From: Mobula hypostoma
Taxonomy: Eukaryota
Direction: 5' to 3'
Length of the DNA: 64,000 nucleotides
NCBI RefSeq assembly: GCF_963921235.1
Contig: NC_086097.1
Location: 120,468,001 to 120,532,000 of the forward strand
Under the pieces are notes generated by a model. That model was not told the origin of the DNA. It saw only the letters and a list, made by a program, of their open reading frames with translations, and did no database searches. Both the position numbers and the translations under genes were made by a program. Of the stretch, positions 2,726-53,841 are shown in pieces. Numbering within the stretch: the stretch's first letter is position 1; each line of letters begins with the position of its first letter.

Positions 2726-3137
2726 TTGTTCGCCGAGAAAATAAAAATCTTAGATCTTTTGAAAAGTAGCATGTCGCTTGCCAAAGTGGGCCGTAAGGTC
2801 GGTAAGAACGAATCGAGCATTCACACAATAAAGCAGAAAGAAGCTGAAATTCGTGGAAGTGTTAGTGCTGCCCCTATAGCGGCAAAAATGGTCTCTCTGG
2901 TTCTTGATAAAGTGCTTGCAAAGACTGAGAAAACGTTAAGTGTGTGGCTAGAGGACATGTCACAAAGCATATCCCTGTTGATGGCAAAATTATGCATGAA
3001 AAAGCACTTAGCCTCTAAGAGCACGACTGTGAGGGGGTTGAGGAGAGCGAGAGGAAGGAGTTTAAGGCTAGTAGGGGATGGCTGGCTAGCTACAGCCTCA
3101 AGAACTTAAAGATCACGGAGAATCGGCACGGCAGATG
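2726..3137 (+). pseudogene. Tigger/pogo (TIGD-like) transposase N-terminal HTH/CENP-B DNA-binding fragment
   Basis: KIKILDLLKSSMSLAKVGRKVGKNESSIHTIKQKE...LSVWLED, then after a frameshift IPVDGKIMHEKALSL*...EFKASRGWL...LKNLKIT; no DDE domain follows. Confidence 0.8.
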
Positions 3138-4368: not shown

Positions 4369-5640
4369 ATCTCATCCATTGTAATGGAAGTATCTAATAA
4401 AGAAGACATATCCTGTGAAATCTGAGGGAAGTCTAACTTATCTAAAAAATCATTCATATATTTAGAATCTCGAGGAGACTCTGATTGATATAAAGAAGAA
4501 TAAAAATCACAAAAGGTTTGATTAATCCCCACATGATCCAATATCAATCGATCATTTTGGTTATAAATCTGATTGATTTGAGATTTAACATAATTAGATT
4601 TCAATTGATTAGCCAGCAGCTTGCCAATTTTATCACTGTGAACATAAAAATCACTTCTTGTTTTCTTTAATTGGTTTACAATCGAGGACGAGAGTAGTAA
4701 ACTGTGTTCCATTTGAAGTTCAGTTCTTTGTTTGTATAGCTCCTCAGAAGGAGCCATAACATATTTCTTATCAATTTCTTTAATCTTGTCCACAATTGCC
4801 ATCTCCTCCTGCTTCTGTTTCTTCCTCAAAGCAACGGAATACGAAATAATCTGACCCCGAATATAGGCTTTAAAAGTGTCCCAAAGAGTGTTAACCGAAA
4901 TATCTTCTGTATGGTTAATTATAAAAAAAAGCTCAATCTGTTCATTCATAAAATTAACAAAGTCCGAGTCCTGAAGCAACAGCGAATTAAAACGCCATTG
5001 TCTATTGTTTGGTATATTGGCCATAATTTTAATAGAAAGCTTAAGTGGAGCATGATCCGAAATGGTTATAGAATCATAATCACATTTAATCACTGAAGGA
5101 ATGAGACGAGAATCAATAAAAAAATAATCAATTCTTGAATAGGAATGATGAACATGTGAAAAAAAGGAAAAATCTTTTTCCTGAGGATGCAGAAAATGCC
5201 AAATATCCGTCGACCCAGAATCAGAAAGGAAAAAATTAATCAAATTTGCAGATTTATTAGGTAAAGTCCGTAAAGGAGCCGAACGGTCCAAAGCTGGAGA
5301 TAAACAGGTATTAAGATCTCCGCCCCAAATCAATGAAATTCGGAAACTGATCAAACAATGATTTATAAAATTCCGGACAATCCATATTAGGAGCATAAAC
5401 ATTAACCAAAACTACTTTTTTATTAAATAGTAAACCACTAACCAATAAAAATCTACCATTCGGATCAGAGATAATATCCTGTTGTATAAAAGTAACTGAG
5501 GAGTCTATAAAAATAGAGACGCCTCGAATCTTAGCATTGGAGTTCGAATGAAATTGTTGTCCCTTCCAGAATTTGAAAAAACGTAGTCTGTCCCCCCTCC
5601 GTACATGGGTCTCTTGTAAAAATAAAATTTGTGCTTTTTT
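4369..5640 (-). pseudogene. L1 ORF2 N-terminal APE endonuclease and linker (inverted segment)
   Basis: Minus strand: ILFLQETH, NVYAPN, (frameshift) IWGGDLN, YSRIDYFF, ISDHAP, WRFNSLLL, LWDTFKAYIRG, ending SITMDEIK. Confidence 0.92.
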
Positions 5641-5643
5641 GTG

Positions 5644-8044
5644 AATGTTATTTTTTCTATGAATCTGGGGAAAGCTCCTGGCCCTGATGGGTTTACCGTT
5701 GAATTTTATAAATGTTTTGCTTCTTTATTGATTCCTTGGCTCTATAAGGTTTTTGAGGCTTCTTTGAAACTTGGTAAACTTCCGGAATCTTTTAATAGAG
5801 CATCAATTTCTTTAATACTAAAGAAGGATAAAGACCCTGCTCAATGTGCATCTTATAGACGAATATCTTTATTAAATGTTGATTCTAAAGTTTTTTCTAA
5901 GTTATTAGCAAATAGACTAGAAAAAGTACTTCCTTCTATTATTTCGGAAGACCAAACGGGTTTTATTAAAGGTCGTTACTCTTTTTATAATATTCGTACA
6001 TTGTTAAATATCGTTTATACTCCCTCACAAAATGTTCCTGAGTGTGTTATTTCTTTAGATGCCGAGAAAGCTTTTGATAGAGTAGAATGGCCTTATTTAT
6101 TTAAGGTGCTTGAAATGTTTAATTTTAGCTTGAAATTTATATCCTGGATTAAACTGTTATATCACTCCCCTGTAGCCTCGGTTCGTACTAACTCCTTAAA
6201 CTCACCTTTTTTTCCTCTCTTTCGTGGTACTCGACAAGGCTGTCCTCTTAGTCCCCTATTATTTGATATTGCATTAGAACCTCTTGCAATTGCTATTCGA
6301 GAATCTTCAAATATTACTGGGATAACTCGGGGATTAAAGTCCCATAAATTATCACTCTATGCTGATGATTTACTTTTATATATTTCTAATCCTGAGAGAT
6401 CCATTCCTGCTGTTTTAGAGTTATTAGCACAATTTGGTCTTTTCTCAGGTTATAAATTAAATCTTAGTAAGAGTGAACTTTTTCCGATTAATAAACATCT
6501 TCCCTTATATTATAAATTTCCATTTAAATTGATTAATAATTACTTTTCATATCTTGGGATTAAAATTACTTGTAAACATAAAGATTTATTTAAGACTAAC
6601 TTTTTACCATTAATAGACCATATTACTCAACTTTCATCTAAATGGTTTCCCTTATATTTAACTTTGATTGGTCGTATTAATGCAGTTAAGATGTTTTTTT
6701 TGCCAAAATTTTTATATGTGTTTCAGGCATTACCAATTTTCGTTCCTAAATCTTTTTTTGATAAAGTTGACTCTAAAATTTCTTCATTTATTTGGCAGAA
6801 TAAGAATCCGAGACTGGGTAAAATACATTTACAGAAAGCTAAGAGAGATGGAGGTTTAGCATTACCTAACTTTAGATTTTATTATTGGGCTATTAATATT
6901 CGACATATGAAATTTTGGTTACTTGACCGGGACATACTATCTATTCCTAAATGGGTAGCATTGGAATTACAATCTGTTCAGGGTTATACACTTGGTTCTA
7001 TTTTAGGTTCCTCTCTTCCTTTTGATTCGAAACGTCTTAAGCAGGTCTCTAACCCGATAGTTAAATATGCTTTGCGCATTTGGTTTCAATTCAGAAAATT
7101 TTTTGATCTTAATCAATTCGGGTTAGCGATTCCTATTTTAGGTAACATATTTTTTCCTCCCTCTTTTACGGATCGCGCTTTTCAAACTTGGAAGACTAAG
7201 GGTATTTTACGGTTTTTGGATTTATTTTTAGATGGTTCCCTTATGTCTTTTGAACAATTATCTAATAAATATAACTTATCAAGAATACATTTTTTTAGAT
7301 ATTTACAAGTTAGAAATTTCCTAAGTACTATACTTTCTTCCTTTCCAATGCTTCCTCCTATATATATTTTAGATTCGATAATTAACCTTAATCCATGTCA
7401 GAAAGGTGCATCGGCTATGATTTATAATATTATTATGAAACTTAGGAAAGCTCCATTTGATAAGATTAGGGTAGATTGGGAACAGGAATTGGGGCTTACC
7501 ATTTCTGTGGATGATTGGGGGCAGATTTTACAATTAGTTAATACTTCCTCTATTTGTGCTAAACATTCCCTAATTCAATTTAAAGTGGTTCATAGAGCAC
7601 ATATGTCCAAAGATAAGTTAGCGCGTTTTTACTCGCATATTAATCCTTTCTGTGATAGATGTTCGGGGCAGATAGCCTCTTTAACTCATATGTTTTGGTC
7701 TTGCCCTACTTTGGAAACTTTTTGGAGAGATATTTTCAATATTATTTCTAAGGTATTAAATATAGATATCTCTCCTCACCCTATTACTGCTATCTTTGGA
7801 CTACCTAAAATTTCTAGTAATCTTTCCCCTTCAGCCCGTAGAATGATTTGCATTTCTTACTTTAATGGCGAAAAGATGTATTTTACAACATTGGAAAGAG
7901 CTTAATGCTCCAACTACCTTTTTTTGGTTTTCTCAGACGATTTTATGTTTGAATCTGGAGAAAATTAGAAGTAACCTTTATGATTCTTCATTTAAATTTG
8001 AACAGATTTGGGGACCTTTTATTCGATATTTTCATTTAATGTAA
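5644..8044 (+). pseudogene. L1 ORF2 reverse transcriptase and C-terminal CCHC region
   Basis: GKAPGPDGF, LDAEKAFDRVEW, GTRQGCPLSP, LYADD, CDRC..HMFWSC; a frameshift near 7848 restores MIAFLTLMAKRCILQHWK...IWGPF to TAA at 8042-8044. Confidence 0.95.
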
Positions 8045-8920
8045 TATTTACCCTTCTTGTTTTTTCTTCACTGTTTTAATGGAGGTCGGGATTGAGGACG
8101 TGATTTTAAGTTTAACTCTGTTTGGTTTCAAGTTAGCCCATTGCTTTGCTTTGCTTTTAGTTAGTTGCACGGTGGGTTTTTTTTTGGGGTTTTTTTTTCT
8201 TTTTTTTTTCCATTGATATATATAAAATCTAGTATACTATTATGTTATTTTGGTTTCCTATGCTTAAATTACATTGTTTGTAGTACTTTCTTTTTGGTAT
8301 TGTTATCTTTTGGAATTTTATTATACTTTAACATTGTATTAATGTTTATATGGCTTACCTTTTTTGTATACTTACTCAATAAAAAGATTTAAAAAGAAAG
8401 AAAATGGGAAGTTTGGAGAAATTACCTTAACAAGCAACATCAAAATTGTCTCCATTAATTATCTACAGTTTCCTATTAGACTTATAAACAATTTGCACCA
8501 CCGTATGTTCACGGCAGCATCCTTGAAAGGTTCTCAAACTTCTAAACATCGAAGTATGTATAAATCCCTGCTAAATGAAATGTGTGTCCTTGATAAAGAT
8601 AACTGGCCTGCTGAAATACCTTCTAATTATGGAGAAGCTGCAATATCATCTCTCTGTAAGAGGTTTAAGCTTTCTTCTTTCTCTGTAATAAATGCCTTCG
8701 GAGATTATGTGGAGGATCATGGATGCTGCATCCCCCAAGATTTACGCCCATTACTCAGCTGTTCACAAGTTATTCCTATTAGTACTGATGAGTGTGAGGG
8801 GGGATTCAGTCACATGAACTTGATAATAACAACAACACGCTCAAGAATTCTCATAAAGCATGTTTCACCACTTATGTTTGTTAAACTACACGGACCTCCT
8901 CTAGTTCAGTGGAATCCTGA

Positions 8921-9080
8921 GCTGACACCAGGACAAGAGTTGTTTCAGACCCCTGAATACATATTATGCCTGACCCTTTGTGGAAATTATTGTGAAACTT
9001 CTCATTGGTGGCATTGACTGTAACGAAAATCAATCAATTTCCCCGGAATCAATAAAGTATGACTCTGACTATGACTATGA
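8921..9080 (+). mobile_element. Short LINE-tail insertion at the end of the hAT transposase
   Basis: Ends AATAAAGTATGACTCTGACTATGACTATGA; transposase similarity stops at WNPE (8920). Confidence 0.55.
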
Positions 9081-10836: not shown

Positions 10837-10868
10837 ACATTTTAAGAAGCCCTATTCATATATATATA

Positions 10869-10963
10869 TGTCACACCCAATTTGTGTACCTGCTCATTAC
10901 ATGAATGGGGCAAGGAAGTTGCCCAGTACATGAAATGAGCAGGTACACAAAGTGGGTGTGACA
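10869..10963. repeat. ~95-bp hairpin (MITE-like) within a (TA)n tract
   Basis: 45-bp arms TGTCACACCCAATTTGTGTACCTGCTCATT... and ...AATGAGCAGGTACACAAAGTGGGTGTGACA, 5-nt loop, TA runs on both sides. Confidence 0.85.
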
Positions 10964-11559
10964 TATATATAGAGAGGATATGGGAAATGACAAGCATTTT
11001 ATCAGCTCCGGCACCTAAAAAATTAGCACTGCACCCTTGCTCAGTTTGGTTTTCTTTTTAAAGTAGGAAACTGGTGGAGATTTAGATGTAAGGCAAGGCT
11101 CTTGTCCATAAGACATAAGACACAAGACATAAAACATAACATTGTCAATTGCATAAGAACGCGTTGGGAATCCTGGTAGAAAACCAAAATGTGTGTTCTT
11201 CATGAAAATAGAGGTCCTCTAATTAAGATAAAGACATAGTATCTCTAAGCATTCTGAATATGCAGCATCTTCAGATGGAGTTTAAAAACCTTTAAATTTA
11301 GGAACTGAAATTCAACATGAAATAAAGGAACTTCAGACTCCTGGAAACAATTTCTTCAAATATAAATACACTTTTGCTTTTCCAAGTCATAAGTCCTTTC
11401 AGTAACAACATTTTAAGGCATTAATATCACAAGGAATTGAAATCATGAAGTGAATTGTACTGAGAAATATCCAGTCTGTGGTTGGTCATCGTGGACAGTT
11501 AGATTTATGCAATTCTTCTGTTGTGCAAGAACTGCACAAAGAAACTTATGTGGGTAAGG

Positions 11560-16501: not shown

Positions 16502-18320
16502 AACTCTAGAATCCATCAAATGTCATGCTTTCAAAGTGCCTATCAATAATGGATTTAAAAAACTGCCTATTATCCTCATCCTCACTCAGCCTAATTGGTA
16601 CAGGAACATATGAATAGGGTTCTAAACTAAATAGTGGGGACAGTGGGTTCAACAGCTCAGAAAAGTATGGGCAAAGTAAAAGGGAAAGAGAGTGTAGGGA
16701 AGTTACTGAAGTCTACAGATTAAAGGATGTATTAAAAGGGATATGGATTTAACCAGACAACATGGAGAAAAAAAAATTGTAAAGATGGATGGAAAATGCA
16801 GAAGGCATAATGTTTGAATGCACACAGTATATGGAGTAAAGTAGATGATCTTGTTAGGAATCTTGTTAGATGTGCTGTTGTGCACATCACAGAGTTGTAG
16901 CTGAAAGGAGATCACAGCTGGGAGCTTATCATCCAACGATCGTATCGAAAGGACAGACAAGTGGGCATTGAGCGTGGGGTGGCATTGTTGTTAAAAATGA
17001 AATCAAAGCCTTAGAAATAAGTGACATAAAACCAGGAGATTAGAATCCTTGTTGGTAGAGTTAAAAACTGCAGAGTTAAAATGTACTGGTGGTTACAAAC
17101 AGTAGCCAGGATGTAAGATACAAACTAAAACAGGAGATAGAAAAGGCATGCAAAAATGGCAATGTGATGATGGTTCTTGGGGATTTCAATATGCAAATAG
17201 GTTGGGAAATCAGATTGGTGCTGGATCCCAACAGAAGAAAGTTATAGAATGTCAACAAGATGGCATTTTAGAGCAACTTGTGATCAAACCTAGGAGGAAA
17301 AGGCAGTTCTGGATTGGGTGTTGTATGACGAAACAGATTTGATGAGAAATCTTAAGACAAGTGAACCCTTAGGGGGCAGTGATCATAATATGATATACTT
17401 CACACTGTAGTCTGAGAGGGAGAAGCCAAAATCAGATGTATCAATATTACACTGGAATAAAGTTGATTGGAAAGAGACACTAACAGGGATGACAGTGGAG
17501 CAACAATGGCTGGAGGTTCTGTGAGCCCTTTGGATGATGCAGGATCAGTTCATTCAAAAGAAGAAGAAGCTTTCTACGGGGAGAATGAAGCAACCATTGA
17601 TTGACAAGAGAAGTCAGCATAAAAGTAAAAGAGATGATGTAGCAAATACTAGCAAGAATTTAGAAGATTGGGAAGCTTTTAAGAAATAACGAAAAACAAT
17701 AAGGGAGAGAAGATGAAATATGACAGTAAGCTAGCCAATAATAAAAAAGAGGATACCAAAAGTTTTTTCAGATATAAAAAGACTAAAAGAGAGGTGAGAG
17801 TAGATATTGGACTGCTGGCAAATGATGCTGGAGAGGTAGTAATGGGGGATAAAGAAAGGATGGATGAACCGAATCAATACTTTGTGTCAGTCTTCACTGT
17901 GGAAGACGCTACAGGCATGCCAGAAATTTGAGGATGCCGGGGGTAGAAGTGAGTGTAATCACTCTGACTGGAATAGTTCTGGATGACTGGGAAATAGCAA
18001 ACGTTACTTCACACTTTAAGAAGGAAGGTGGGCGGGGTAAAAGACTAGAAATTGTAGGTCAGTTAGCCCGACTAAATTTGTTTGCAAGATGTTAAATTGA
18101 TTATTAAGAATGACTTTTTGGGATAAATGAAAGCACATGTTAAAATAGGCTGAAGGCAGAACGAATTCATTAAAGGGAAATTTTGTCTGATAAATCAGTT
18201 AGAATTCTTTGTGGAAATAATAGGCAGGGGAGACAAAAGAAAGTCAGTGGATATTGCTTACTTATATTTTCAGAAGGCCTTAGAGAAGGTGGTTTTCATG
18301 GGGCTGCGAAACAAGAAAGA

Positions 18321-20547
18321 AATGAATGCATCAGGTACACGCAGCATGGATTCAGCAAAGGCAGGTCCTCTTTGACAAACTCATGGGAGTTCTTTGAGGA
18401 TATAATAAGCGCAGTGGATAGAGGGGAACAGATGGACATTATTTACTTGGATTTCCAGAAGACGTTCAATAAGGTGCCGCATAAAAGACTTATCCTTAGG
18501 ATAAAGATGCATAGAGTTGGAGCTAATCTTGGAGCATGGATAAAGAATTGGTTAACCAATAGAATATACATGGGTGTTTCGCTGGTTGGCAATCCGTGGT
18601 GAGTGGTGTGCTGCAGGAATCAATGCTGGGTATGCAACTGTTCACAATATACATAAATGATCTGGAAGAGGGGACCGAATGTAATGTATCTAAGTTTGCT
18701 GATGACACTAAATTGAGTGGAAAAGCAAATTGTGCAGGGGATATGGAAATTCTGCAGAGGGATATAGATAGGTTAAGTGAGTAGGCAGATGGAGTACAAT
18801 GTTGGTAAATATGAGGTCATCCACTTTGGAAGGAAAAATGGAAGATAAGATTATAGTTTATACTATATTGTTGCCAAACAATTGACACTGGAATGTACAA
18901 TCATCACAGTGATATTTGATTCTGTGCTTCCCACTCCCTGGATTACAAATCGATAGTAAATATTAAAAATTTAAATTATAAATCATAAATAGAAAATAGA
19001 AATATGGAAAGTAAGGTAGTGCAAAAAAACTGAGAGGCAGGTCCGGATATTTGGAGGGTACGGCCCAGATCCGGGTCAGGATCCATTCAGCAGTCTTATC
19101 ACAGTTAGAAAGAAGCTGTTTCCAAATCTGGCCATATGAGTCTCCAAGCTCCTGAGCCTTCTCCCGAAGGGAAGAGGGACGAAAAGTGTGTTGGCTGGGT
19201 GGGTCGTGTCCTTGATTATCCTGGCAGCACTGCACCGACAGCGTGCAGTGTAAAGTGAGTCCAAGGACGGAAGATTGGTTTGTGTGATATGCTGCACCAT
19301 GTTCACAATCTTCTGCAGCTTCTTCCGGTCTTGGACAGGACAACTTCCGTACCAGGTTGTGATGCACCCTAGAAGAATGCTTTCTACAGTGCACCTATAA
19401 AAATTAGTGAGGGTTTTAGGGGATAGGCCAAATTTCTTTAGTTTTCTCAGGAAGTAAAGGCGCTGGTGAGCCTTCTTGGCAGTGGACTCTACTTGGTTCC
19501 ACCAAGTCAGGTAATTTGTGATATTGACCCTGAGGAACTTGAAGCTTTTGACCTGTTCCACTTGACACCACCAATGTAAATTGGGTAGTGCAGTCCACTA
19601 CTCCTTCTGAAGTCAACAACCAATTCCTTGGTTTTGTTGACGTTGAGGGATAGGTTATTGTCTTCGCACCATGCCACCAGGTTCTTAATTTCCTCTCTGT
19701 ACTCAAACTCATCATTACCGGAGATACGGCCTACAATTGTTGTGTCATCAGCAAACTTATATATTGAGTCTTATGGAAACTTGGCTACACAATCACGGGT
19801 GTACAGTTATTATTTAAATGGTGAACGATTGCAACATGCTCCTGTGCAGAAGGACTTGGGAGTCCCTGTGCATGAATTACAAAAGGTTGGTTTGCAGGTG
19901 CAGTCGGCTATCAAGAAGGCAAATAGAATGTTGGCCTTCATCGCGAGAGGGATTGAATTTAAGAGTAGGGCAGTTAGCCTGCAAATGTACAGGGTGCCGG
20001 TGAGGCTACAGCTGGAGTACTGCGTGCAATTCTAGCCTCGTTACTTGAGGACGGATATACTGGCTTTGGAGGTGGTGCAAAGGAGGTTAACCATGTTGAT
20101 TCCAGAGATGAGGGGGTTAGACTATGAAGAGAGATTGAGTTGCCTGGGACCGTACTCGCTGGAAGGACCTTAAAGAAACATATAAAATTATGAAAGGGGA
20201 TAGGTAAGATAGGGGCAGGAAAGTTGTTTCCACTGGTATGTGAGACTAGAATTAGGGGACATTGTCTCAAGATTTGGGGGAGACAATTTAGGATGAAGAT
20301 GAGGACGAACAGTGTTTCCCAAATAGTGGTGAATCTGTGGAATTCTCTGCCAGATGAAACAGTGGAGGCTACCTGAGTAAATATATGTAAGACAAGGTTG
20401 GATAGATTTTTGCATAGTGGGGGAATTAAGGCAGGTAGGTGGAGGTGAATCCATGGTCCGGTCAGCCATAATCTTATTGAATAGAAGAGCAGGATCAATG
20501 GGTCAGATGGCTTACTCCTGCTCCTATTTCCTATGTTCTTACTATGT
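18321..20547 (+). mobile_element. CR1 LINE (CR1-B) nested in CR1-A and split by a Rex-type LINE
   Basis: QHGFSKGRSSLTN, YLDFQKTFNKVPH, SKFADDTKL, KKANRMLAFIARG; tail at ~20520-20547. Confidence 0.82.
18855..19806 (-). mobile_element. Rex/Babar-type LINE, 5'-truncated, nested in CR1-B
   Basis: 161-aa ORF KKAHQRLYFLRKLKKFGLSPKTLTNFYRCTVESIL; minus-strand KFADDTT near 19750; probable TSD TTAT (18851-18854, 19807-19810). Confidence 0.88.
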
Positions 20548-20656
20548 GAGAGCCCATGCTATTACAGGGAAGTACCTAGCATGAGTAGAAGATTGGCTGA
20601 TTGGCAGAAGGCAATAAACGGGACCTTTTCTGTTTAACTGAAGGTGTTCCACAGGA

Positions 20657-22311
20657 GAACATAGAAACATAGATTACCTACAGCACAATACAGTCCCTTC
20701 AGTCCACAAAGCTGTGCCGAACATGTCCTTACCTTAGAAATTACCTAGGTTTACCAATAGCCCTCAATTTTTCTTAGCTCCATGTATCTGTCCAGGAGTC
20801 TCTTAAAAGACCCTATCATATCCGCCTCAACCACCGTCGCTGGAAGCCCATTCCACACACTCACCACTCTCTGCGTAAAAAAAAACTTAAACCTGGCATC
20901 TCCTTTGTACCTAGTTCCAAGTACCTTAAAACTGTGCCCTCTCATACTAGCTATTCCAGCCCTGGGAGAAAGCCTCTGACTATCCATACAATCAATGCCT
21001 CTCATCATCTTATACACCTCTATCAGGTCACCTCTCATCCTCCATCGCTCCAAGGAAAAAAGGCCAAGTTCACTCAATCTATTCTCATAAGGCATGCTCC
21101 CCAATTCAAGCATCAGCCTTGTAAATCTCCTCTGCACCCTTTCTATGGTTTCCATATCCTTCCTGTAGTGAGGCAACCAGAACTGAACACAGTACTCCAA
21201 GTGGGGTCTGACTAGGGTCCTGTATAGCTGCAACATTACCTCTCAGCTCTTAAACTCAATCCTACGGTTGATGAAGGCCAATGTACCATATGCCTTCTTA
21301 ACCACAGAGTCAACCTGCGCAGCTTTGAGCATCCTATGGACTCGGATCACAAGATCCCTCTGACCCTCCACACTGTCAAGAGTCTTACCATTAATACTAT
21401 AATCTGTCATCATATTTGACCTACCAAAATGAACCACCTAACACTTACCTGGGTTGAAGTCCATCTGCCACTTCTCAGCCCAGTTTTACATCCTATCGAT
21501 GTCCACTGTAACCTCTGACAGCCCTCCGCACTAACTACAACACGCCTAACCTTTGTGTCATCAGCAAATTTACTAACCCATCTCTCCTCTTCCCCATCCA
21601 GGTCATTTATAAAAGTCACAAAGAGAAGGGGACCCAAAACAGATCCCTGAGGCACACCACTGGTGACCAACCTCCATGCAGAATATGACCCATCTACAAC
21701 CACTCTTTGCCTTCTTTGGGCAAGCCAGTTCTGGATCCACAAAGTAATGTCCTCTTGGATCCCATGCCTCCTTACTTTCTCAATAAGCCTTGCATTGGGT
21801 ACCTTATCAAATGCCTTGCTGAAATCCATATACACTACATCTACTGCTCTACCTTCATCAATGTGTTTAGTCACATCCTCAAAAAATTCAATCAGGCTTG
21901 TAAAGCACAACCTGCCCTTCACAAAGCCATGCTGACTATTCCTAATCATATTATGCCTCTCCAAATGTTCATAAATCCTGCCTCTCAGGATCTTCTCCAT
22001 CAACTTACCAACCACTGAAGTAAGTCTCACTGGTCTATAATTTCCTGGGCTATTTCTACTCCCTTTCTTGAATAATGGAACAACATCCACAACCCTCCAA
22101 TCCTCTGGAACCTCTCCTGTCCTCATTGATGATGCAAAGATCATCGCCAGAGGCTCAGCAATCTCCTCCCTCACCTCCCACAGTAGCCTGGGGTACATCT
22201 CATCCAGTCCCTGTGACTTATCCAACTTGATGCTTTCCAAAAGCTCCAGCACATCCTCTTCCTTAATATCTACATGCTCAAGCTTTTCAGTCCGCTTTTC
22301 AGTCAGCTTTT
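20657..22311 (-). mobile_element. CR1 LINE (CR1-C, copy 1) nested in CR1-A
   Basis: 280-aa RT ORF (NYRPVRLTS, QHGF, DFSKAFDKV, GVPQGSVLGP, FADD) and 161-aa C-terminal ORF; tail near 20660; TSD CAGGA (20652-20656, 22312-22316). Confidence 0.92.
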
Positions 22312-23654
22312 CAGGAATCGATGTTGGATCTGCTACTGTTCATATTGTATGTTAATAACCTGGATGAAAGAATTATGGCTTTGTTGCAAGCTTGTGGATG
22401 ATACAAAGGTAAGTAGAGGGACAGGAAATGTTGAAGAAACAGGGAGTCGGCAGAAGGACTTGCACAGATTAGGAGAATGAACGAAGAAGTAGCAGAGGAA
22501 CAGAGTGTTGAGTCGTGCACCACTTTGGTTGAAGGAATAAAGGCACATATACTATTTTCAAAATAGGGAGCAAATTCAGAAATCAGAGGTGCAGAGGGAC
22601 TCGGGGTTCCAATGCAGTATTTCCTAACGATTAACATGTAGGTTGAGTCAGATGTAAGGAAAGCAGATTTATTTCAAGAAGGCTAGTATATAAAAGCAAA
22701 AAAGTTCTTGTGAGGTTTTATAAGGCATTAGTCACACTGTATTTTCAGTATTGTGAGCAGTTTTGAGCCCCATATCTAAAAAAAGATGTGCTGGTATTGG
22801 AGATGGAGGACGTTCATCCCTGGGAATGAAAAGATTAACATATAAGGAACATATAATGGGTGTGGGCCTGTCTTTGCTGGAGTTTAGGAAAAATGAGGGG
22901 GAATCTCATTAAAACCCATTGAATATTGGAAGGTCTGAATAGAGTGGAGGTAGAGAGGATGTTTCTAATAGTGAGAGAATCTCAGATTAGAGGGCACAGC
23001 CTCAGAATATAGGGTCAGCCCTTTAGAGCTGAGATGAGGAGGAATTTCCTTCGTCAGACTCGGTGAATTTGTGGGATTCATTCCCTCAGCCCGTTGTGGA
23101 GGCCAAGTCACTGGGTATATTTAAAGCAGAGGGTAATAAGTTCTTGATTAGTAAAGGTATCAAAAGTGATGGAGAGAATGCAGGAGAACAGGATTGTGAG
23201 GGAAAATAAATCAGCTATGATTGAATAGCAGAGTTGATTCAATGGACTGAATGACCTGATTTGGCCGCTATGGCTTATAGTCTTATGCAAATTATATGTT
23301 ACTGTGGTAACTGGATGATTGAAATTCTGACATACAGTACACATTAAGGAATATTTGTGGTCTTGACCACTGACTGCTCCCAGCGCATTGGAAAGTTAAT
23401 GCTCCCTTAGCACCATCTTCAAGCTACCATGCCCCATTCAGTAACGACAGCTAAGTATAATACTATTAACTCACAAGTGAGCAATACTCACAGAGCCATA
23501 GAAGTAACAACTAAGCATGATAAAAAAAAATCTTGCTTCAAGTTTTTTTTCATCGCATTAGGTGAGCTGGAAATGAGAGCTCATTTTATATGTGACTAAC
23601 ATATGCAAATTAACCAGCCAAACATAGTTATTGAAAATGTACTGCTAGTTGACA

Positions 23655-26425: not shown

Positions 26426-26835
26426 TGAAGAATAATTTTCTTAGCCTTCTGAAGAAGTGGAGTCATAGTCACCAGAGAAATTGCATTGTCTGTAGAGTTT
26501 CCCTTTTTGTCTGCTTTGGAACAGTTTTGTGTACAGTTGTGAATGATTGTGACATAACACTTCCATGGAACTGATAAGCTGACATTATACAGTAGACATT
26601 GATTCATCTGAAACAGTTCTCAATTTATACAGAATTTGACAGAAGAACTAGCATGAGTCTCACAATATTTTTCTTTGGAACAACTATGTCATTTTTTTCA
26701 AATCTGATGGAATTGGCAAGGCAAATTTTATCTAATCTCAGTGACTACTTTATTAGATACCTTATATAAAGTGACCACTGAGTGTATGTACATGGTCTTC
26801 TGCTGTTGTAGCTCATCTACTTCAAAGTTCAGTGT

Positions 26836-29062
26836 ATTTCTCTTCGTGATTTTTATAAATGACCTGGATGAGGAAGTGGAGGAGTGGGTTAGTAAATTTG
26901 CTGATGACACAAAGGTTGGGTGTGTTGTGAATAGTGTGGAGGGCTGTCAGAGCTTGTAGCGGGACACTGATAGGATACAAAACTGGGCTGAGTAGTGGCA
27001 GATAGAGTTCAACCCAGATACGTGTGAGGTGGATCATTTTGGTAGATCAAATATATGGCAGAATATAGTATTAATGTTAAGACTCTTGGCAGTGTGGAGG
27101 ATCAGAGGGACCTTGGGGTCCGAGTCCATAGAACAGTCAAAGCCACTGCGCAGGTTGACTTTGTGGTTAAGAAGGGATATGGTGCATTAGCCTTCATCGA
27201 CCATGGGCTTGAATTTAAGAGCTGAGAGGTAATGCTACAGCTATATAGGACCCCGGTCAAACCTCAATTACAGTACTGTGCTCAGTTCTGGTCACCTCTC
27301 TACAGGAAGGACATGGAAACTACAGAAAGGGTGCAGAGGAGACTTACAAGGATGTTGCCTGGATTGGGAAGCATGCTTTATGAGAATAGGTTGAGTGAAC
27401 TCGGTCTTTTTCCCATGGAGCAGCGGAGAATGAAGGGTGACCTGACAGAGGTGTATAAGATGATGAGAGGCATTTCTCTTTCAATATTTTTATTAATATA
27501 TAAATTGCATAAATACAAATACAAAATTTCTAAGGATACAAGTAATATGAATTATATTACATTTAAATCACAGTAATATCATCACAGTATCCCATATTCC
27601 AAATCAATCATCTAGAAAAAAAAATGAATTATGAAATGAAATAAAATAAAATAATTGTATTCTATTAAAAAAATCTACCCGACTACCAAAATGAGCTAGT
27701 TGGTAAAAAAGAGAAGAAAAAAAAACCTTACCATATAATATTATAATAATAATGGCTCAGATCCATACTTTAATAACAGTTCAAAGATTATGAAAGTAAC
27801 TCAGAAAGGGTCCCCATAATATTAGAAAATCATGTTTAAAATCAGAAATCGAACAATGAATCTTCTCTAGATCGAGGCACAACATAACATTAGATAGCCA
27901 TTGAACATGAATGGGCGGGATGGCCTCCTTCCACTTGAGCAAGATCACCCTCCTGGCCATAAAGGCCAATACCTGAAAATTAGCTGGCTTCAGTTTTGTA
28001 GCACGATCCTCAACAATACCAAACATGGCAGTCAAAGGATTGGGCTTAAAACTAACATTGAAAAGTACAGAAAAAGTTTGAAATACATTTTTCCAAAATT
28101 TTTCAAGGCTCGGACATGTCCAAAACATGTGAATTAGTGTGGCCACTCCATTAGTACATCTATCACAGTAAGCGGAAATATCTGCATAGAAATGAGAAAG
28201 CTTGTCTTTAGATATATGAACCCTATGTACCATTTTGGATTGTAATAAAGAATGACGAGCACATAATGAAGAATTAATCAATTGTAAAATAATCTTACTG
28301 CTCTCTTCAGATAGGAAAATCTGTAAATCCTTTTCCCAGTCTCCTTTAATTTTACCTAAAGAGGCCTTTTTCAGACCCAACAGCAGACCGTAAATGTAAG
28401 ATATTGAACCGTTGTCAAAGGGTTTCAGATTAAAAATTGTGTCTATTACATTCTTACCTGGACTTGTAGGAAATGTATGTAATTGAGATCTTAAAAAATC
28501 TCTAATTTGTAAGTGTCGAAAAAACTGGGTATTGGGAAATGAGAGGCATTGATTGTGTGGATAGTCAGAGGCTTTTTCACAGGGCTGAAATGGCTAGCAT
28601 GAGAGGGCACAGTTTTAAGGTGCTTGGAAGTAGGTAGAAAGGAGATGTCAGGGGCAAGTTTTATTTTTACGCAGAGAGGGGTGAATGCATGGAATAGGCT
28701 GCCAGCAACAGTGGTGGAGGCGGATACAGTAGGGTCTTTTAAGAGACTCCTGGACAGGTACATGCAGTTAAGAAAAATAGAGGGCTATAGGTAACCCTGG
28801 GTAATTTCTAAGGTAAGGACATGTTGAACACAGCTTTGTGGGCCGAAGGACCTGTATTGTGCTGTAGATTTTCTACGTGTCGATGTTTTCCTGTGGAACA
28901 CCTTGAGGTAAACAGAAAAGGTCTCCTTTATTGCCTTCTGCCAATCAGCCAATCTTCTACCTATGCTAGGTACTTCTATGTAATAGCATGGGCTCTTACA
29001 TAGTCAGAATATTAGAAATAGGAGCAGGAGTAGGCTTATGCTGTAGGTTTTCTATATATTAT
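26836..29062 (+). mobile_element. CR1 LINE (CR1-C, copy 2), split by an L1 fragment and carrying a copied flank
   Basis: FINDLDEEVEEWVSKFADDTK, MLQLYRTPVKPQLQYCAQFWSP; tails at ~28855-28888 and ~29037-29062. Confidence 0.85.
27475..28538 (-). mobile_element. L1-clade LINE 3' fragment
   Basis: 12-bp TSD ATGAGAGGCATT (27463-27474, 28539-28550); ORF with CDRC..HMFWTC...LEKIH..LWGPF, homologous to the 5644-8044 C-terminus; minus-strand AATAAA near 27495. Confidence 0.92.
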
Positions 29063-30281
29063 GCTTTGCACATCACTGTTGTAATATGTGGTTATTTGAG
29101 TTCCTGTCACCTTCCAGTCAGCTTCAACCAATCTGGCCATTCTCCTCTGACCTCTCTCTTTAGCAAGGCATTTTTGCCTACAAAACTATCACTCACTGGA
29201 TTTTTTTTTGTTCTTTGCACCATTCTCTGTAAACTTTAGAGACTGCAATGCATGAAAATCTCAGGAGATCATTAGTTTCTAAGATATTCAAACCCCCTTG
29301 TCTGGCACCAACAATCATTCCACAATCTGTCACTTAGATTACATTTCTTTCCCATTGGTTTAATCAACAAATTAACCTTTTGACTACATCCACATGCTTT
29401 TATGTATTGAGTTGCTACCACATGATTGGCTGGTTAGATATTTGCATCAATGTGCAGGTGTATCTAATAAAGTAGCCATTGAGTGTATCGGTACCTGTTT
29501 AGTTTTCTGGTAATTGGCTCTGCATTGTGTGCACAATTATTTGTAGAATCATTACCATCAAGTATCAGACCATTTCAGACATCTGCAGTGAAAGGATCTC
29601 ACTGCTGTGGAGTCTGGGTGCCCTTGAGAGCGAGCAGCTGAATGGAGTCAGCAATCACACCCATAAGTATGCACACTCCAGCCAATTAGGGGTTCATTTT
29701 TGTTTCTATTTAATTCCCTTCCTTTCATTTCAGTCTTCTGAATCTTGACCAAAGCATAGGAATAGAATACGCCCTGCTTATTGAAGTCCACGCTCCAGGA
29801 AAGAAGATGTTGCTAGGAAGTTATGTAGTATTTAGTTTCTGATTCAAAGTCACAATGATGGTGTTACATTTTACTTTGAAAGTTTTTGTTAGCTGCCCTG
29901 CTCGACCAGCTTTTATTACGTTCCCTTTGGTTCTGTTACAGTTTGCATTAAATCTCAGTGAACTTTTCATCCTCCACCAAAGGGAAAAAAGTTGCTTTTG
30001 AAATAGAACGTTTTTGACTGCAAAAATGAAGTTCATATCAACTACAAGATGCTGAGCAAAGATCAGGGAAATAGTAAATTTTTTCAGACTTTCATTTTGT
30101 GGGCTGCATAGTCACTTTGAGGATTGCTGTTTTAGTCACTGAAGAACATCCAATTGTCCTGAGTTTCCTGGATGTAAATAAATCACTTATACTTTCCCAT
30201 ATAGTGTCACCTGCTTATAAAAAGCTGCAGCAGTATGATATGGATGTACTATGCATGTCAGGTTGACTATAGTGATGAAAT

Positions 30282-30696
30282 TGTCAGGGCACTGGAGCAG
30301 CGATCCAATTGCAGACCCAGTACTGTGCACACAGTGATATCAATTGAGTAACAAATCCCAAGGTGCAAACAAAGTCAGCGCCAAAGTTCAGGCAGAGATC
30401 AAAACATCCAGAGAAATCCAAAAACCAGAATCGGGAAACAGGCAGAGTCGATATTCAGATGGACAGTACAGATACGGATGCTGGAAAGGCTCAGGAAAAT
30501 TCACTGGCACAATCTGACAACAAACAGGTGAAAACACAGGACTGAAATACACTGAGCAATAAACAGAGAGGCAGATGATAGGTGGAGCACAATGAGACAC
30601 AGGTGGCAGCAATACAGGTAATAATGAGAACTAGATGAGAGATGGAGTACTCAGTAATACAGGGGCTGGAGTGGAGTTCAGCTGGAGGTACAGACA
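30282..30696 (-). repeat. 3' LTR of the chromovirus
   Basis: Direct repeat of 34071-34563 with an ~80-bp deletion; preceded on the minus strand by purine-rich AGGGGAAGG. Confidence 0.88.
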
Positions 30697-32109
30697 ACAC
30701 ACCTTCCCCTATGGATGCCTCCTGGCATCACAGCAGGTACAGCTGGGTGCTGGCGATGAAAGGCCCTGATGAGAGAAGAGTCCAGGATGTTACTGGCTGG
30801 GATCTAGCACCTCTCCTCAGGACCATAGCCCTCCCACTCCACAAGGTACTGGAGGCCATAGCCCCGGCAACAAACGTCCAGCAGGTGACGCACTGTGAAG
30901 GCCTCTGCCCTATCGAAGAGCCGTGGGGAAGGTGGGGGTGTGGTTTGGGGACAGGACACAGGGGGTGGCTCATGATGGGCTTGATGTGGGACACATGGAA
31001 GGTGGGATGAATGCAGTGGAGAGTGGAGGGGAGCTTGAGTTGGATGGTAGCAAGGCTGATGACTTTAGCAACGGGAAAAGGCTGATGAAGCGAGGGGTGA
31101 GCTTACAGGAATCCACCTTGAGGGGCGGATCTCGGGTTGAAAGCCACATACACTGTCCCTGGCAGTAGCATGGGGCCTTGGAGCAGTGGCAGTCAGCTTG
31201 ACACTTGATCCTTGCAGAGACACGGAGAAGGGCAGAATGAGTTCGCCTCCATGTCCGCTGACAATGGTGGATGAATGCCTTGGCAGATGGAACGCCAACC
31301 TCCTCCTTCTGGGCAGGAAACAGTGGAGGTTTGTAGCCAGGGCAGCACTCGAATGGGGACAGACTGGGGGATGAGGACGATGAGAGTTTATGGCATACTC
31401 AGCCCAGGGTAGCTGCTGACTCCACGCATAGGGGTTCTGGGAGAACAGACACTACAATACTGTCTCTAGCTGTTGGTTGGCCCGCTCTGTCTGGCCATTG
31501 GTCTGTGGGTGGAATCCTGAAGACAGACTCACCGAGGCACCCAGAGGATTACAGAATGCCCTCCAGAAGCTGGATGCGAATTGAGAGCCCCTGTCTGACA
31601 CAACATCTACAGGTAAACTAAGTAATTTGAAAACATGCAGTACTAGTAATTTGGCTGTTTTTTGGCAGAGGGGAGTTTAGATACACACTTGGAGAAATGA
31701 TCAACTACAGTGAGAAAGGTGGTATTACCATCTGATGGGGGAAGACCGGTGATAAAATTCAAGGCAATGTGGGACCAGGGTCTCTTGGGGATAGACAGGA
31801 GTTGTAACAGACCAGCAGGTGACTGGTTAGAGTTCTTGCCTTGAGCACAGACCGAGCAGGCAGAGACAAAATTGTGGATGTTATCTCCCATGGAGGGCCA
31901 CCAGAACTGTCGGCTGATGAAGGCCTGAGTACGCTTGGTTCCAGGGTGACAGGATAACCGGGAAGAATGACCCCACTGCAATACCTGTGAGCGGACAGAG
32001 CTGGGAACATAAACAGGGTTAGTGGGGCATTGACTAGGGGCTGCCTCGATCTGTTGAGCAGTAGGCACAATGGCTTCAATGTCCCATTGTGTTGCACACA
32101 TGAGACAGT

Positions 32110-32177
32110 GAGCAGGGAGGATGACAGCAGGGAGGATGACAGCAGGGAGGATGACAGCATGGAGGATGACAGCAGGG
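32110..32177. repeat. 15-bp tandem repeat, ~4 copies (CAGCAGGGAGGATGA)
   Basis: Encodes (P/H)AVIL repeats in the RNase H-integrase linker. Confidence 0.9.
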
Positions 32178-34070
32178 ACCTCAGGGGTCTCAGAGGAAGG
32201 AAATCTTTGAGAGGGCATCAGGTTTTCCATTCGTGGAACTGGGGCAGAAGGACAGAGCAAAATTGAATCTTGAGAAAACAGGGACCAATGAGCTTGACGG
32301 GAGTTGAGATGCTTGACAGTACAGATATATTCCAGGTTTTTGTGATAGTCCAGACTAAAAATGGTACCTTGGCTCTCTCCAGCCAATACCTCCAATCCTC
32401 CAGAGCTAGCTTCACAGCCAGTAGCTCCTGGTTTCCGGCATCATAATTCTGCTCCATGGGAGTGAGGCAGTAAGAGAAGGCGGTGCAGGGGTGTACCTTC
32501 TCATCCTTGGCCGAGTGCTGAGAGAGAACAGCTTCTACGCCAATGTTAGACACGTCCACCTCCACAATGAACTGCCGGTTGGTGTCGGGTTGAAACAGGA
32601 TGGGAGTAGAGGTGAAATGTTCCCTCAGGTCAGAGAATGCTTTTTCAGCAGCAGGGGACCAGGAGAATCTGACAGCCAATGGGTAAGAGCAGTGAGTGGT
32701 GCAGCCAGTGTACTGTAATTTCTGATGAAGCAGCGTTAGAAATTAGCAAAGCCCAAGAAGCATTGCAACTCCCAACGAGTTGAAGGTTGGGGCCATTCGA
32801 CCACAGTCTTGACCTTCTGTTGGTCCATCTGAATGGAACCGCGTGAAATTATAAACCCCAGGAAGAAGATGTTATTGTGATGAAACTCACATTTCTCAGT
32901 CTTCACAAAGAGCTGGTTCTCCAGAAGGCATTGGAGAAGTCTGCAGACCCCTCCGCACCAGAATCGACCAAGACACTGCTCGCCGTTGGACGCCCCACTC
33001 CAGAGAAGCAGGTATGAGAGTGAGTGGTGTCAAGGAGGGCCGGACAGGGGTCACGCTCACCAATACTCCTCATCCTACTGGTGAACGCTTGGCTTTTACT
33101 GGGCAGGTGGAGATTCAGTGGTCTGGTTGGCCACAGTACGGACAGGATCGTGTGCTGATTCTCCTTTGTCTTTCAGTTGGCGTCTGGCAGGTACAGTCGA
33201 CCTTCATAGCTTTGGGCTCTGGAACAGGAATTGTAGATGGGGACAAATGGCAGGGCAATGTGGTCTGACGAGGAGCTTGGAACTCACTCAGTGGACCCAG
33301 GGACCCTCTGTAACCCCTCCCTCTGCAGCGCTGCTGAAGGCGAACATCAATACAGATGGCTAAATCCACCAGGGCTTCAAAGGTGGCAGGAATGTCCTGG
33401 GTGACCAGCTCATCTTTGATATCTGAGAGGCCATTCAGGAAGGTGTCATAATGTGCCTCTTAGTTCCAGCCACTGGAGGTGGCTAGGGTCCGGAACTCTA
33501 AGGCGTAATCTGACACAGATCTGCACCTCTGGTGCATGTGCAGCATTTCAAGGGCAGCCTCTCTCCCATCTTTGGAGCGATCAAAGACTTTTCTCATCTC
33601 CTCAGAAAATAACTGGAAACTACTGCAGGAAGTGGTGCCTGCCTCCCAGACGGCTGTTCCCCATTCTCTTGCCCAACCGGAAGTTGGGTGATGACTAGGC
33701 TCGATCAGACAGAGATGTTGTTGGCTGCAATTCAAAAATGAGGGTGCACTGGGAAAGAAAAGGGTGGCAGGTACTGGGCTCACTCGAGTACTTTTCTGGA
33801 GGAGACAGACAGGGCTCTTGGATGGGAGGAGCATGCGAGGACAGAGAGGGCAGGGTGGAAGATGCAGTTGCAAAATGTTGATGGACGCTCTGGGGTAGCT
33901 AGACTGACTGATCCTGGGCCCCAAGATCGGCTACAATGGCAGAAAGTGACTCTACTGTCCTGAACACAGATTCCAGCTGGTTCTGGAGTCTCACCAGCGT
34001 CACTCTCTGTTGTTCCAGGATAACTCTCAGATGACCGGGGTCTGCTGGATTCATTCTGGCCAGATTGTCT

Positions 34071-34563
34071 TATCAGGGCACTGGAGCAGGGATCCAATTG
34101 CAGACCCAGTACTGTGCACACAGTAATATTAATTGAGTAACAAACCCCAAGGTGCAAACAAAGTTGGCATCAAAGTTCAGGCAGAGATCAAAACATCAAG
34201 AGAAATCCTAAAACTAGAACTAGGAAACAGGCAGAGTCAATATTCAGATGGACAGACTACAGATACAAATGCTGGACAGGCTCAGGAAAATTCACTGGCA
34301 CAATCTGACAACAAACAGGTGAAAACACAGGACTGAAATACACTGAGCAATAAACAGAGAGGCAGATGATAGGTGGAGCGCAATGAGACACAGGTCGCAG
34401 CAATACAGGTAATAATGAGAAGCAGATGAGAGACGGAGTACTCAGTAATACAGGGGCTGGAGTAGAGCAGGAGCGGGGACAGGAGCACATGGCAATACAA
34501 AACCACAGACTGACAGCTGGGAGAAACACACAAAAAGACCGAGTTCAACTGGAGGTACTTATA
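34071..34563 (-). repeat. 5' LTR of the chromovirus
   Basis: Direct repeat of 30282-30696, adjacent to the primer-site region and gag ATG. Confidence 0.88.
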
Positions 34564-40192: not shown

Positions 40193-42898
40193 CACTTAGA
40201 GGCCACTTAATTAGGCACCTCCTTTACCTAACAAATAGACCACTGAGTGTATGTTTGTGATCTTGGGCTGCATTTTAAGATCCATTTTGTTGTGCTTTCA
40301 GAGGTGTTCTCTGCACATCACTGTTGTTATTTCAGTCACTGTTCATGAAGGAATAAAGGCTATTACAGAGACATAAGAAAGGAGCTTGCCCAGGTTGATC
40401 GGAGGAAGATACTGGTGGGGATGACAGCAGGTCAGAGATGGCCAAAGTTTCAGGGAATAGTACACAAGGCACAGGATAGGTATGTCCCACAGAAGAAGTT
40501 GTTCTCAACTGGTAGGGGTAGGCAACTGTGGCTGACAAAGGAAGTTAAGGGCTGCATAATAGCCAAGGAAAGGGCTATATAAGGTAGTAAAAGTAAGTGG
40601 GAAGTTGGATGATTGGGAAGCTTTTAAAATCCAACAAAAGGCAGCTCTCAAAGCTATAAGAAGGGAAAAGATGAGATATGAGGGCAGACTAGCCAATAAT
40701 ATAAAGCAGGATACTGAAAGTTTTCTCAGTTACATAAAGAATAAAAGGAAGGTGGAAGTTGATATCAGACCACTGGAAAATGATGTTGGTGAGGTAGCAA
40801 TGGGGGAGAAAGAATTGGCATATGAACTTAATGGGTACTTTGCATCTGTCTTCACTGTGGAAGACACCAGCAGTGTGCCAGAGGTCTGTGAGACTCAGGG
40901 AGCAGGAGTGACTGCCATTGCTATTACAAAGGAAAATTGCTAGGCAAAATCGAAGATCTTAAGATGTATGAGTCAGATGGACTACATCCCAGAGTCCCAA
41001 GAGAAGGTGCTGAAGAGATAATGAATGCATTGGTCATGATCTTTCAAGAATTACTTGATTCTGGCAGGGTCCCGGAGGACTAGAAGATTGCAAATGTCTC
41101 TCCATTCTTCAAGAAGGAAGGAAGGCAAAAGAAAGGAAATTATAGGCCGGTTGGCCTAACCTCAGTGGTTGTGAAAGTGTTGGAGTCTATTATTAAGGAT
41201 GAGGTTGCGAGGTACTTGGAGATTAATGACAAAATAAGTCAAAATCAGCATGGTTTTATAAAGGGAAATCTTGCCTGAAAAATCTGTTGGAGTTCTTCAA
41301 GGAAGTAACAAACAAGGTGGACAAAGGAGAGGTAGTAGATGTCATTTACTTGGATTTTCAGAAGGCATTTGATAAGGTGCCACATATACAGCTGCTTAAT
41401 AAGATAAAATCCTCTGGCATTACAGGAAAGATACTGGAATGGATGGTGGAATGGCTGACAGCTAGAAGGCAGCAAGTGGGAGTGAAAGAGGATTTTTCTG
41501 GTTGGCTACCGGTAGCTAGTGGTGTTCCTCAGGGGTCAGTATTGGGAACAATGTTTTTCACATTGTTTGTCAGTGATTTAGATAATGGAATTGATGGATT
41601 TGTAGCAAAGTTTGCGAATGATACGATGATAGGTGGAGGGGTTGGCAGTGCTGAGGAAGCAATGTAATTGCAGCAGGGCTTAGACAATTGGAGGAATGGG
41701 CAAAAAAGGTGGCAAATGGGATACAGTGTTGGGAAATGCATGATAATGCAATTTGGTGAAAGGAACAATAGTGCAGACTATTACCTAAATGGGGAGAAGT
41801 TTCAAACAACAAAGTTGCAGAGGGACTTAGGAGTTTTCATGCAAAACTCCCAGAAGGTTAATTTAAATGTGGAGTCTGTGGTAAAGAAGGCAAATGCAAT
41901 ATAGGCATTTATTTCAAGGGGGCTAGAATATTAAAGCAAGGAGATAATGCTGAGCCTTTATAAGACACTAATCAGGCTGCACTTAGAGTATCATCAATAG
42001 TTTTCGTCCCCATATCTCAGAAAGGATGTGCTGTCATTGGAGAGAGTCCAGAGGAGGTTCACAAGGATGATTCTGGGAATGAAGAGGTTAACATATGAGG
42101 AGCGTCTGGCAGCTTTGGGCCTGTACTCACTGGAATTTAGATGAATGCAGGGGATCTCATTGAAACTTACTAAATGTTGAAAGGACTAGATCAGATGGAT
42201 ATGGAGAGGATGGTTCCTGTGGTGGGGGTATCCAGATTTAGAGGGCACAGCCTCAAAATTAAGGGGACATCTTTTAGAACAGAGGTAAGGAGAATTTTTT
42301 TTTAGCCAAAGAGTAGTGAATCTGTGGAATGGTCTGCTACAGACTACAGTGGAGGCCAAGTCTCTGGGTATACTTAGCGCAGAAGTCGATAGTTTCCTGA
42401 TCAGTCAGGGCATCAAAAGATATCAAGTGTTTGGGGTTGAGTGGGATCAGGGATCAGCAATGATGGAATGGCAGAGGAGAGTCGATGGGCTGAATAGCCT
42501 AATTCTGCTCTTATGGTCTTATATTGCCTTCCCGTCAGCTTTAACCTGTCTTGCCATTCTCCTCTGACCTCTCTCATTAACAAGGCATTTTACCCACAGA
42601 ACTACCCCTCACTGGATGTTTTTTTGTCTTTTGCACCACTCTCTGTAAACTCCAAAGACTGTTGGTTGTGAATATCTCAGCACATCAGCGATTTTCGAGT
42701 TGCTCAAATCACTCCATGTGGCACCAACAATCATTCTATGGCCAAAGTCACTTGGATCACATTTCTTCCCCATTCTGATGTTTTAGCATGTCTGCATGCA
42801 TTTATGCATTGAGTTTCTGCCACATGATTGGCTAATGAGATACCTACGTTAATGACCGGCAGGTGTACAAGTGAACCTAATAAAGTGACCACTGAATG
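40193..42898 (-). mobile_element. Non-autonomous Tc1-like element, copy 2, interrupted by CR1
   Basis: TA|CACTTAGAGGCCACTTAATTAGG ... CCTAATAAAGTGACCACTGAATG|TA; inner TIR ends at 40249. Confidence 0.82.
40344..42522 (+). mobile_element. CR1 LINE, 5'-truncated
   Basis: YFASVFTVED, YLDFQKAFDKVPH, SGVPQGSVLG, KFANDT; tail CTCTTATGGTCTTAT. Confidence 0.9.
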
Positions 42899-52840: not shown

Positions 52841-52886
52841 AGAACCAGAATCAAAATCAGCTTTAATATATCCAGCATATTTTGTG

Positions 52887-53742: not shown

Positions 53743-53746
53743 TAAG

Positions 53747-53765
53747 TGGGGTTCTCGTCCGCGAT
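53747..53765 (+). promoter_or_regulatory. Primer binding site, tRNA-Pro-like
   Basis: TGGGGTTCTCGTCCGCGAT vs canonical Pro PBS TGGGGGCTCGTCCGGGAT, 4 nt after the LTR. Confidence 0.8.
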
Positions 53766-53841
53766 TTTGAACGCTAAATTTGGGACGGAGTAAATTGATT
53801 GGGTTAAAATTCCCGAAAGAAAGAAAAGACAAACAGCAGAA

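Follow-up and report, generated by a model that had tools for sequence, protein, structure and literature searches.

One-sided invasion was reportedly described by Belmaaza and Chartrand in 1994, and conversion between LINE copies at breaks is said to have been reported by Tremblay et al. in 2000. In L1-type 3' transduction, an element carries the 3' flank of its own source copy, with a new poly(A) at the end. In a fly germline gap-repair assay, according to passages of PMC2895639, the commonest outcome was incomplete synthesis followed by end joining, and parts of PMC11293582 state that inverted Alus can serve as the junction-1 repeats of DUP-TRP/INV-DUP rearrangements. The 3' stringency of LINEs is reviewed in a portion of PMC3747384.

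In the window, by which we mean the whole 64,000-nucleotide stretch of Mobula hypostoma DNA that was analysed, a 147-base sequence that includes nested element junctions is present twice in opposite orientations, and its second occurrence lies between two tails of one CR1 family, CR1-C. The element names CR1 and L1 are labels that the initial annotation assigned from the sequence, and they are used here in that sense. Reverse transcriptase domains were found by Pfam in the CR1 elements (RVT_1 in the donor copy), and their tails hold TTCTATGT repeats, resembling the avian CR1 octamer in the relevant part of PMC8665684. This arrangement was probably produced by DNA repair that was started by homology and finished by end joining between two young inverted CR1-C copies, that is, by one-sided invasion with synthesis-dependent strand annealing and end joining (SDSA+EJ). 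As in the fly P{wa} SDSA+EJ products described in sections of PMC2895639, one junction lies in homology, the donor is intact, synthesis was limited, the second junction is end-joined and the other end of the recipient was kept; unlike those products, the present one arose naturally in the germline, between CR1 copies, and is fixed; divergence alone dates it, and its run past homology duplicated a unique flank and left a double LINE tail. The mechanism is already known, and the double-tailed CR1 instance is new to the literature that we searched, a non-exhaustive selection covering few subscription papers, in which no description of double-tailed CR1 copies carrying a neighbour's flank was found.

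The donor, locus A, is a nest of three CR1 elements with the following features.

17957-18335 (right boundary approximate), plus strand: upstream part of CR1-A, the oldest element at the locus; it matches the CR1 copy at 41049-41379 and stops where 20548 resumes.
About 18336 to 20547, plus strand: CR1-B, 5'-truncated and lying inside CR1-A, as delimited by alignment; RVT_1 at 18339-18602 is below the curated cut-off.
20510-20656, plus strand: the donor tract, made of the last 38 bases of CR1-B (20510-20547) and a 109-base CR1-A fragment (20548-20656).
20657-22311, minus strand: CR1-C copy A, the donor element, 5'-truncated and inserted in CR1-A; RVT_1 is found in 21410-22339 (E 4e-25) and the tail is 20657-20688.
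22312-23279, plus strand: downstream part of CR1-A; it matches 41557-42523 at 67% and continues the 20548-20656 fragment in the alignment.

CR1-B ends in a 3' stem-loop and a microsatellite tail, and is itself cut by a minus-strand LINE-like element at about 18860-19810. Copy A is framed by a 5-base target duplication, CAGGA (20652-20656 and 22312-22316). Locus A is therefore undisturbed, with its nested order and target duplication kept, and the donor was copied, not moved. Since CR1-A continues on both sides of the insertions and the CAGGA duplication is in place, both tract junctions were made at A, which makes A the source of the copy and B its recipient. A 9-base direct repeat, possibly a small templated addition at integration, was also noticed where the 5' end of copy A meets CR1-A (22294-22314).

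The recipient, locus B, is a CR1-C copy in a host repeat, with these features.

26733-26837, plus strand: left part of the host repeat, a putative Tc1; 26733-26824 matches 62488-62390 at 78%.
26838-27474, plus strand: 5' part of CR1-C copy B, 5'-truncated at the equivalent of 21627; 86% identical to 21627-20994, with family letters at the sites private to A.
27475-28538, minus strand: L1-like fragment, a later insertion in copy B, with a weak zf-RVT match and a likeness to the LINE reading frame at 5626-7905.
28551-28856, plus strand: 3' body and 3' UTR of copy B up to the presumed break, 87% identical to copy A.
28857-28888, plus strand: first CR1-C tail, probably copied at least partly from A; its length equals that of A's tail and it passes without a gap into the copied flank.
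28889-29035, plus strand: inverted copy of 20510-20656 (133/147, E 5.4e-55).
29036-29065 (right boundary approximate), plus strand: second CR1-C tail, presumably B's original tail, in register with 28857.
29066-29493, plus strand: right part of the host repeat; 29067-29493 matches 62354-61921 at 75%.

The L1-like fragment has a 12-base target duplication (27463-27474 and 28539-28550). The initial annotation had stated that the host sequence resumes after the second tail, and indeed the two flanks of the insert match successive parts of a single copy at 62488-61921. About 15-20 host bases are not accounted for at the insertion site of B, in a comparison that rests on one copy that is 75-78% alike, and the site is decayed, with no confidently readable target duplication around the B insert. 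The 5' truncation of B (26838/21627) falls about 17 bases from the position in the reverse transcriptase domain that is paralogous to the site at which CR1-A is split (20656/22312), a nearness that is probably due to chance.

In a global alignment, 28889-29035 is the ungapped reverse complement of 20510-20656, with 133 of 147 bases identical. A BLAST comparison of 28889-29036 with the window placed query bases 1-147 on 20656-20510 (90.5%, E 5.4e-55) and returned no second real match within the window, the next best non-self match having an E value of 0.30. The inverted copy recognised earlier, 28889-29036 against 20509-20656, is hence real and was drawn one base too long at its end: the last homologous pair is 29035/20510, and with the T of position 29036 the second CR1-C tail begins, outside the tract. 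The other components attributed to the tract were also present, namely the junction of the CR1-C tail with CR1-A (20656/20657), that of CR1-A with the CR1-B tail (20547/20548), and short deletions, two of 10 bases each, which loci A and B have in common relative to the CR1 copy at 41250-41700 and which sit in the CR1-A fragment 20548-20656. A divergence of about 10% from the donor argues against an assembly artefact or echo as the source of the tract, which we therefore consider ruled out. The inverted likeness exceeds the tract, since the CR1-C sequence at B (26838-27474 and 28551-28888) aligns with 21627-20657 at 86-87%, and locus B runs seamlessly from this CR1-C homology into the flank of copy A. 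Junction 1 thus lies somewhere in the homology of 28551-28856 or in the tail that follows, its exact point not being placeable.

The second tail was established from its own sequence. In the window, the 17-mer 29039-29055 matches only two CR1-C tails, with two mismatches each, against an expectation of 0.35 matches at three or fewer mismatches, and none of 100 shuffles reached three mismatches. Its start at 29036 corresponds exactly in register to that of the first tail (28857), and its first 22 bases agree at 20 positions with the tail of copy A or the first tail of B. That it is mere host-repeat sequence was ruled out, with at most 13/22 agreement to the other copy of the host element vs 20/22 to the CR1-C tails. 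At the junction 29035/29036 there are no shared bases, that is, no microhomology; a 3-base microhomology is possible only with an additional 5-base loss and was set aside.

The composite might have belonged to a repeat family, loci A and B being two independent insertions of it, and its presence in a family consensus was the circumstance under which the earlier reading would have failed. We examined this by depth and loose ends, using contigs from four public runs that were mapped to 20440-21700 with a likeness threshold of 80%; depth here is summed contig depth, not copy number, used as a coarse ratio only, and runs X13-X19, with their small word shares, were not taken as evidence of range. 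The core bin (20612-20654) was 190- to 5900-fold thinner than the CR1-C body bins in all four runs (2069 vs 467,604-4,802,862 in run X1; 18.8 vs 8,447-110,245 in run X14). Among the matches listed, loose ends piled up at the end of the tail (20658) with mixed flanks (agreement 0.37-0.41), and none piled up at 20510 in the contig placements of the four runs. The family consensus does not contain the composite. The core-bin depth is above zero (2069 in X1), and a small family of tens of copies is compatible with depth alone, but the thin core, the distribution of loose ends among the matches listed and the making of the tract junctions in place at locus A together render two independent insertions extremely improbable. 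Among the matches listed for the four runs, none spanned a junction and none represented an orthologue of either locus, nor was a pre-event allele or empty site seen, and the metagenome contigs gave no match to a 21-base CR1-C motif. At 21637, the family majority letter accounted for about 98% of the depth in three runs and for 62% in run X9, a split that hints at a lineage-specific CR1-C subfamily in organism C.

Whether the whole body of B descends from A, or a short tract only, was addressed with the variants private to A, a check proposed in the initial annotation. Sites at which copy A departs from the family majority were taken from the best supported 40 of 86 rows, and sub-family markers of lower frequency fall outside these 40. 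Thirty-six of the 40 lie in the body covered by B, two in the CR1-B tail and two beyond the 5' end of B being dropped. At these 36 sites, B has the family letter 34 times, a third letter once and A's letter once, about 1.6 shared sites being expected by chance if each site is assumed to have a 4.5% probability of changing in parallel. For a whole-body copy made after 10% of A's changes had accumulated, the probability of one shared site or fewer would be P = 0.037. In run X1, with all 81 listed sites, the totals by kind of change were each matched or exceeded by the A/B differences, as expected if few variants are shared. The body of B is not a copy of an aged A, and the unshared private variants favour a short tract; the same result fits either a B that existed apart from the donor or a copy of a fresh A. 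Close to the junction, B retains the family letter at the A-private sites 20694 and 20703, which are 37 and 46 bases from the end of the tail. A two-base change in A's tail (20673-20674) is likewise absent from B, so no private marker links the first tail itself to A.

Divergence was similar in the two compartments: the flank differs at 14 of 147 sites and, with inferred CpG sites set aside, the body at 105 of 897 (Fisher P = 0.49), with transversions at 4.1% and 3.7%, respectively. Flank and body being about equally diverged, the event was an early one. A whole-body copy of a brand-new A predicts both equal divergence and no shared variants; what the private variants exclude is therefore confined to whole-body copying at a late stage. 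We therefore weighed a whole-segment DNA copy, in which a 30-base cDNA at B (the second tail) captured 1.12 kb (20510-21627) of a very young A and then joined the left end of the target. The equal divergence accords with it, and templated genomic insertions at L1 integration are known from 22 tumour cases described in part of bioRxiv 10.1101/2024.08.27.596794. Those templates, in the same passages of bioRxiv 10.1101/2024.08.27.596794, are typically shorter than 250 bases and lie no more than 15 bases from the site, whereas here 1.12 kb would have come from 7 kb away. The jump point lacks homology, so that landing just downstream of a CR1-C of the same family and sense would be a coincidence, one for which the repair reading has no need, and A would have to have been younger than about one tenth of its age. 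We consider this route improbable.

The initial annotation had offered, beside conversion or templated repair, a template switch of the reverse transcriptase onto a local read-through RNA. In full, CR1 reverse transcriptase primed on a CR1-C tail would have copied about 30 bases, moved to a read-through RNA of A ending in the flank, and copied 1.12 kb of it. Chimeras of this kind are formed by stringent LINEs with a short LINE 3' end, such as U6-L2 in platypus (PMC4476161, in the part concerned); the switch point would lie at the base of the predicted 3' stem; and the read-through RNA would carry the hairpin thought, in passages of PMC8665684, to be bound by the enzyme, which would explain a partner of the same family. 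Against this, nothing known would direct a retrocopy to a site 7 kb from its source, and by our reckoning random insertion into a genome of a few Gb would give such proximity in about 1 of 100,000 cases; copy A is 5'-truncated and would need an outside minus-strand promoter, and no such transcript is evident in the window; and the unshared private variants require A to have been fresh, with no more than about 10% of its life behind it when it was copied (P = 0.037). With a fresh A, a minus-strand transcript and reinsertion beside the source all needed, the switch, which would yield a transduction-like chimera in a stringent LINE, is disfavoured and we rate it as highly improbable. Like the U6-L2 and U6-RTE chimeras described in parts of PMC4476161, locus B has a short 3' end of a stringent LINE (29036-29065) on the 3' side of foreign sequence; unlike them, the foreign part is neighbouring genomic DNA continuous with a copy of the same family, not an abundant small RNA, and no target duplication is clearly readable around the whole insert. 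The likeness to L1-type 3' transduction is that the 3' flank of the source copy follows the element; the differences are that the sequence ends in a second CR1 tail and not in a new poly(A), lies beside its source and has a body with no sign of descent from an aged source. The second CR1-C tail and the adjacent source set it apart from such a transduction.

RNA may also be considered as a template on a smaller scale, with the geometry of the repair reading but with RNA or cDNA from locus A templating the 147 bases with which B's broken tail was mended. Class 2 templated sequence insertions have been proposed, in passages of PMC5110952, to be RNA-derived patches at breaks, and the present tract resembles them as given in parts of PMC5110952 in being a patch of about 150 bases, with an intact donor and no poly(A). 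Their donors are distant and their junctions carry end-joining features, whereas here the donor is local (7-8 kb) and one junction is seamless homology, which rules out membership of the class; moreover, the tract bears no splice or poly(A) mark. An RNA-templated patch appears very improbable.

The repair reading, in which ectopic conversion or templated repair ran beyond the homology of the two inverted CR1-C copies, agrees with all of these tests; of the pair of options first proposed, it is the supported one and the template switch is disfavoured. In its favour are the single shared site among the 36 private to A, a donor that is the nearest copy of the same family in the window (7155 bases from tail to tail before the L1 insertion) and a second tail that would be the retained end of the break. 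The features found are those of one-sided invasion or SDSA+EJ, namely a homologous junction 1, a copied donor and a non-homologous junction 2. One invasion and one joining account for the neighbouring donor of the same family, the inverted copy and the two tails in register.

In outline, CR1-C copy A inserted into the CR1-A/CR1-B nest, as its target duplication and the nested order attest, and copy B appears to have inserted separately, in the opposite orientation, in a host repeat about 7 kb away. While the copies were near-identical, B would have been broken, or synthesis would have stalled, about 30 bases from its 3' end. The left end of B, consisting entirely of CR1-C, may then have invaded its nearest sister A and been extended through A's tail and 147 bases of unique flank. 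After release of the strand, about 30 bases of tail homology would have been available at the other end; annealing would have failed, and blunt joining would have retained both the copied flank and B's own tail. The L1-like fragment later entered B, and neutral decay then affected A and B alike. Among yeast Ty repeats, which copy serves as the ectopic donor depends mainly on proximity (PMC2996329, in the section concerned), and second-end capture is inefficient with short homology according to passages of PMC7407515. The second tail may be short because a longer homology of the second end would have annealed, trimming the flank away. The same product would be left if invasion had been by a stalled replication strand, or by the second DNA strand of B while that copy was still integrating. 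More broadly, the capture may have been tied to CR1 retrotransposition, by a jump of the reverse transcriptase from the 3' stem onto either a read-through RNA tethered nearby or a fresh neighbour's DNA, or by invasion of the inverted sister by the second strand, which we regard as unlikely; if true, a 3'-stringent LINE would have its own local route to a transduction-like duplication of flanks, marked by double tails.

Compared with DUP-TRP/INV-DUP rearrangements as characterised in portions of PMC11293582, locus B is similar in that junction 1 is formed via an inverted repeat pair and junction 2 is blunt or has a few bases of microhomology, but here synthesis was back at its departure point after about 180 bases and the 8 kb between the repeats were neither duplicated nor triplicated. 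In a self-comparison of the window, the 22.3-26.7 kb interval occurred once, and doubling was confined to the tail and the 147 bases. There is no inverted triplication within a duplication, which rules out membership of that class.

A transduction caller would score the structure as a CR1 3' transduction, and repair on the nearest inverted sister explains it better; claims of transduction for stringent LINEs therefore need donor distance and a shared-variant test. The double tail is a searchable mark with which one-sided invasions in the germline, their tract lengths and donor distances could be counted in CR1-rich genomes, and such counts could test whether these invasions are concentrated around integration. 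No function is apparent for the product; as a single neutral scar it is of little significance, and its value is that of a worked example.

Several further observations concern the tails and the remainder of the window. The CR1-B tail (20480-20545) has an RNA fold with a z score of -2.4, 5 of 200 shuffles being equally stable, and the decayed CR1-C tails are no more stable than their shuffles (z 0.88 and -0.31). The start of the second tail coincides with the 3' arm of the stem predicted for CR1-C, a place at which pausing of a reverse transcriptase is also conceivable. The two ends of the blunt junction both lie within 3' stem-loops, of different CR1 families (20480-20530, the CR1-B inner stem; 28826-28866, the CR1-C 3' arm), a placement that, with only the CR1-B fold beating most shuffles, gives a hint of hairpins as a possible cause of both the break and the stop of synthesis.

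On the sense strand of B (26838-28888), about 27 G-to-A changes vs about 5-7 C-to-T changes were estimated by subtraction, and in A (20657-21627) the two kinds of change, also by subtraction, number about 21 apiece although its sense strand is rich in G, so that both copies have an excess of G-to-A over C-to-T on the plus strand of the window. In mammals, such an excess would fit plus-strand host transcription, and by analogy it may weakly suggest the same here. The skews of the unmasked DNA are small and mixed (GC +0.049, TA -0.008), and no host exon was recognised among 204 frames outside repeats, with three weak matches and 0/204 at the curated Pfam cut-off.

Elsewhere in the window, an LTR retrotransposon occupies 52886-57820, with 860-base LTRs that are 96.9% identical and a 784-amino-acid gag-like frame containing SCAN and zinc-knuckle domains; SCAN-bearing Gypsy elements are known. 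A second LTR element, on the minus strand at 30281-34467, has 398-base LTRs that are 93% identical and decayed gag/pol-like frames. At 10861-10971 there is a 111-base imperfect palindrome that is 86% self-complementary (E 3e-30). The LINE at 4332-7905 has a 759-amino-acid reverse transcriptase frame on the plus strand (5626-7905) and endonuclease-like frames on the minus strand (4332-5724), and looks like a 5'-inverted (twin-primed) L1-like insertion in a transposase-like element at about 2700-9000.
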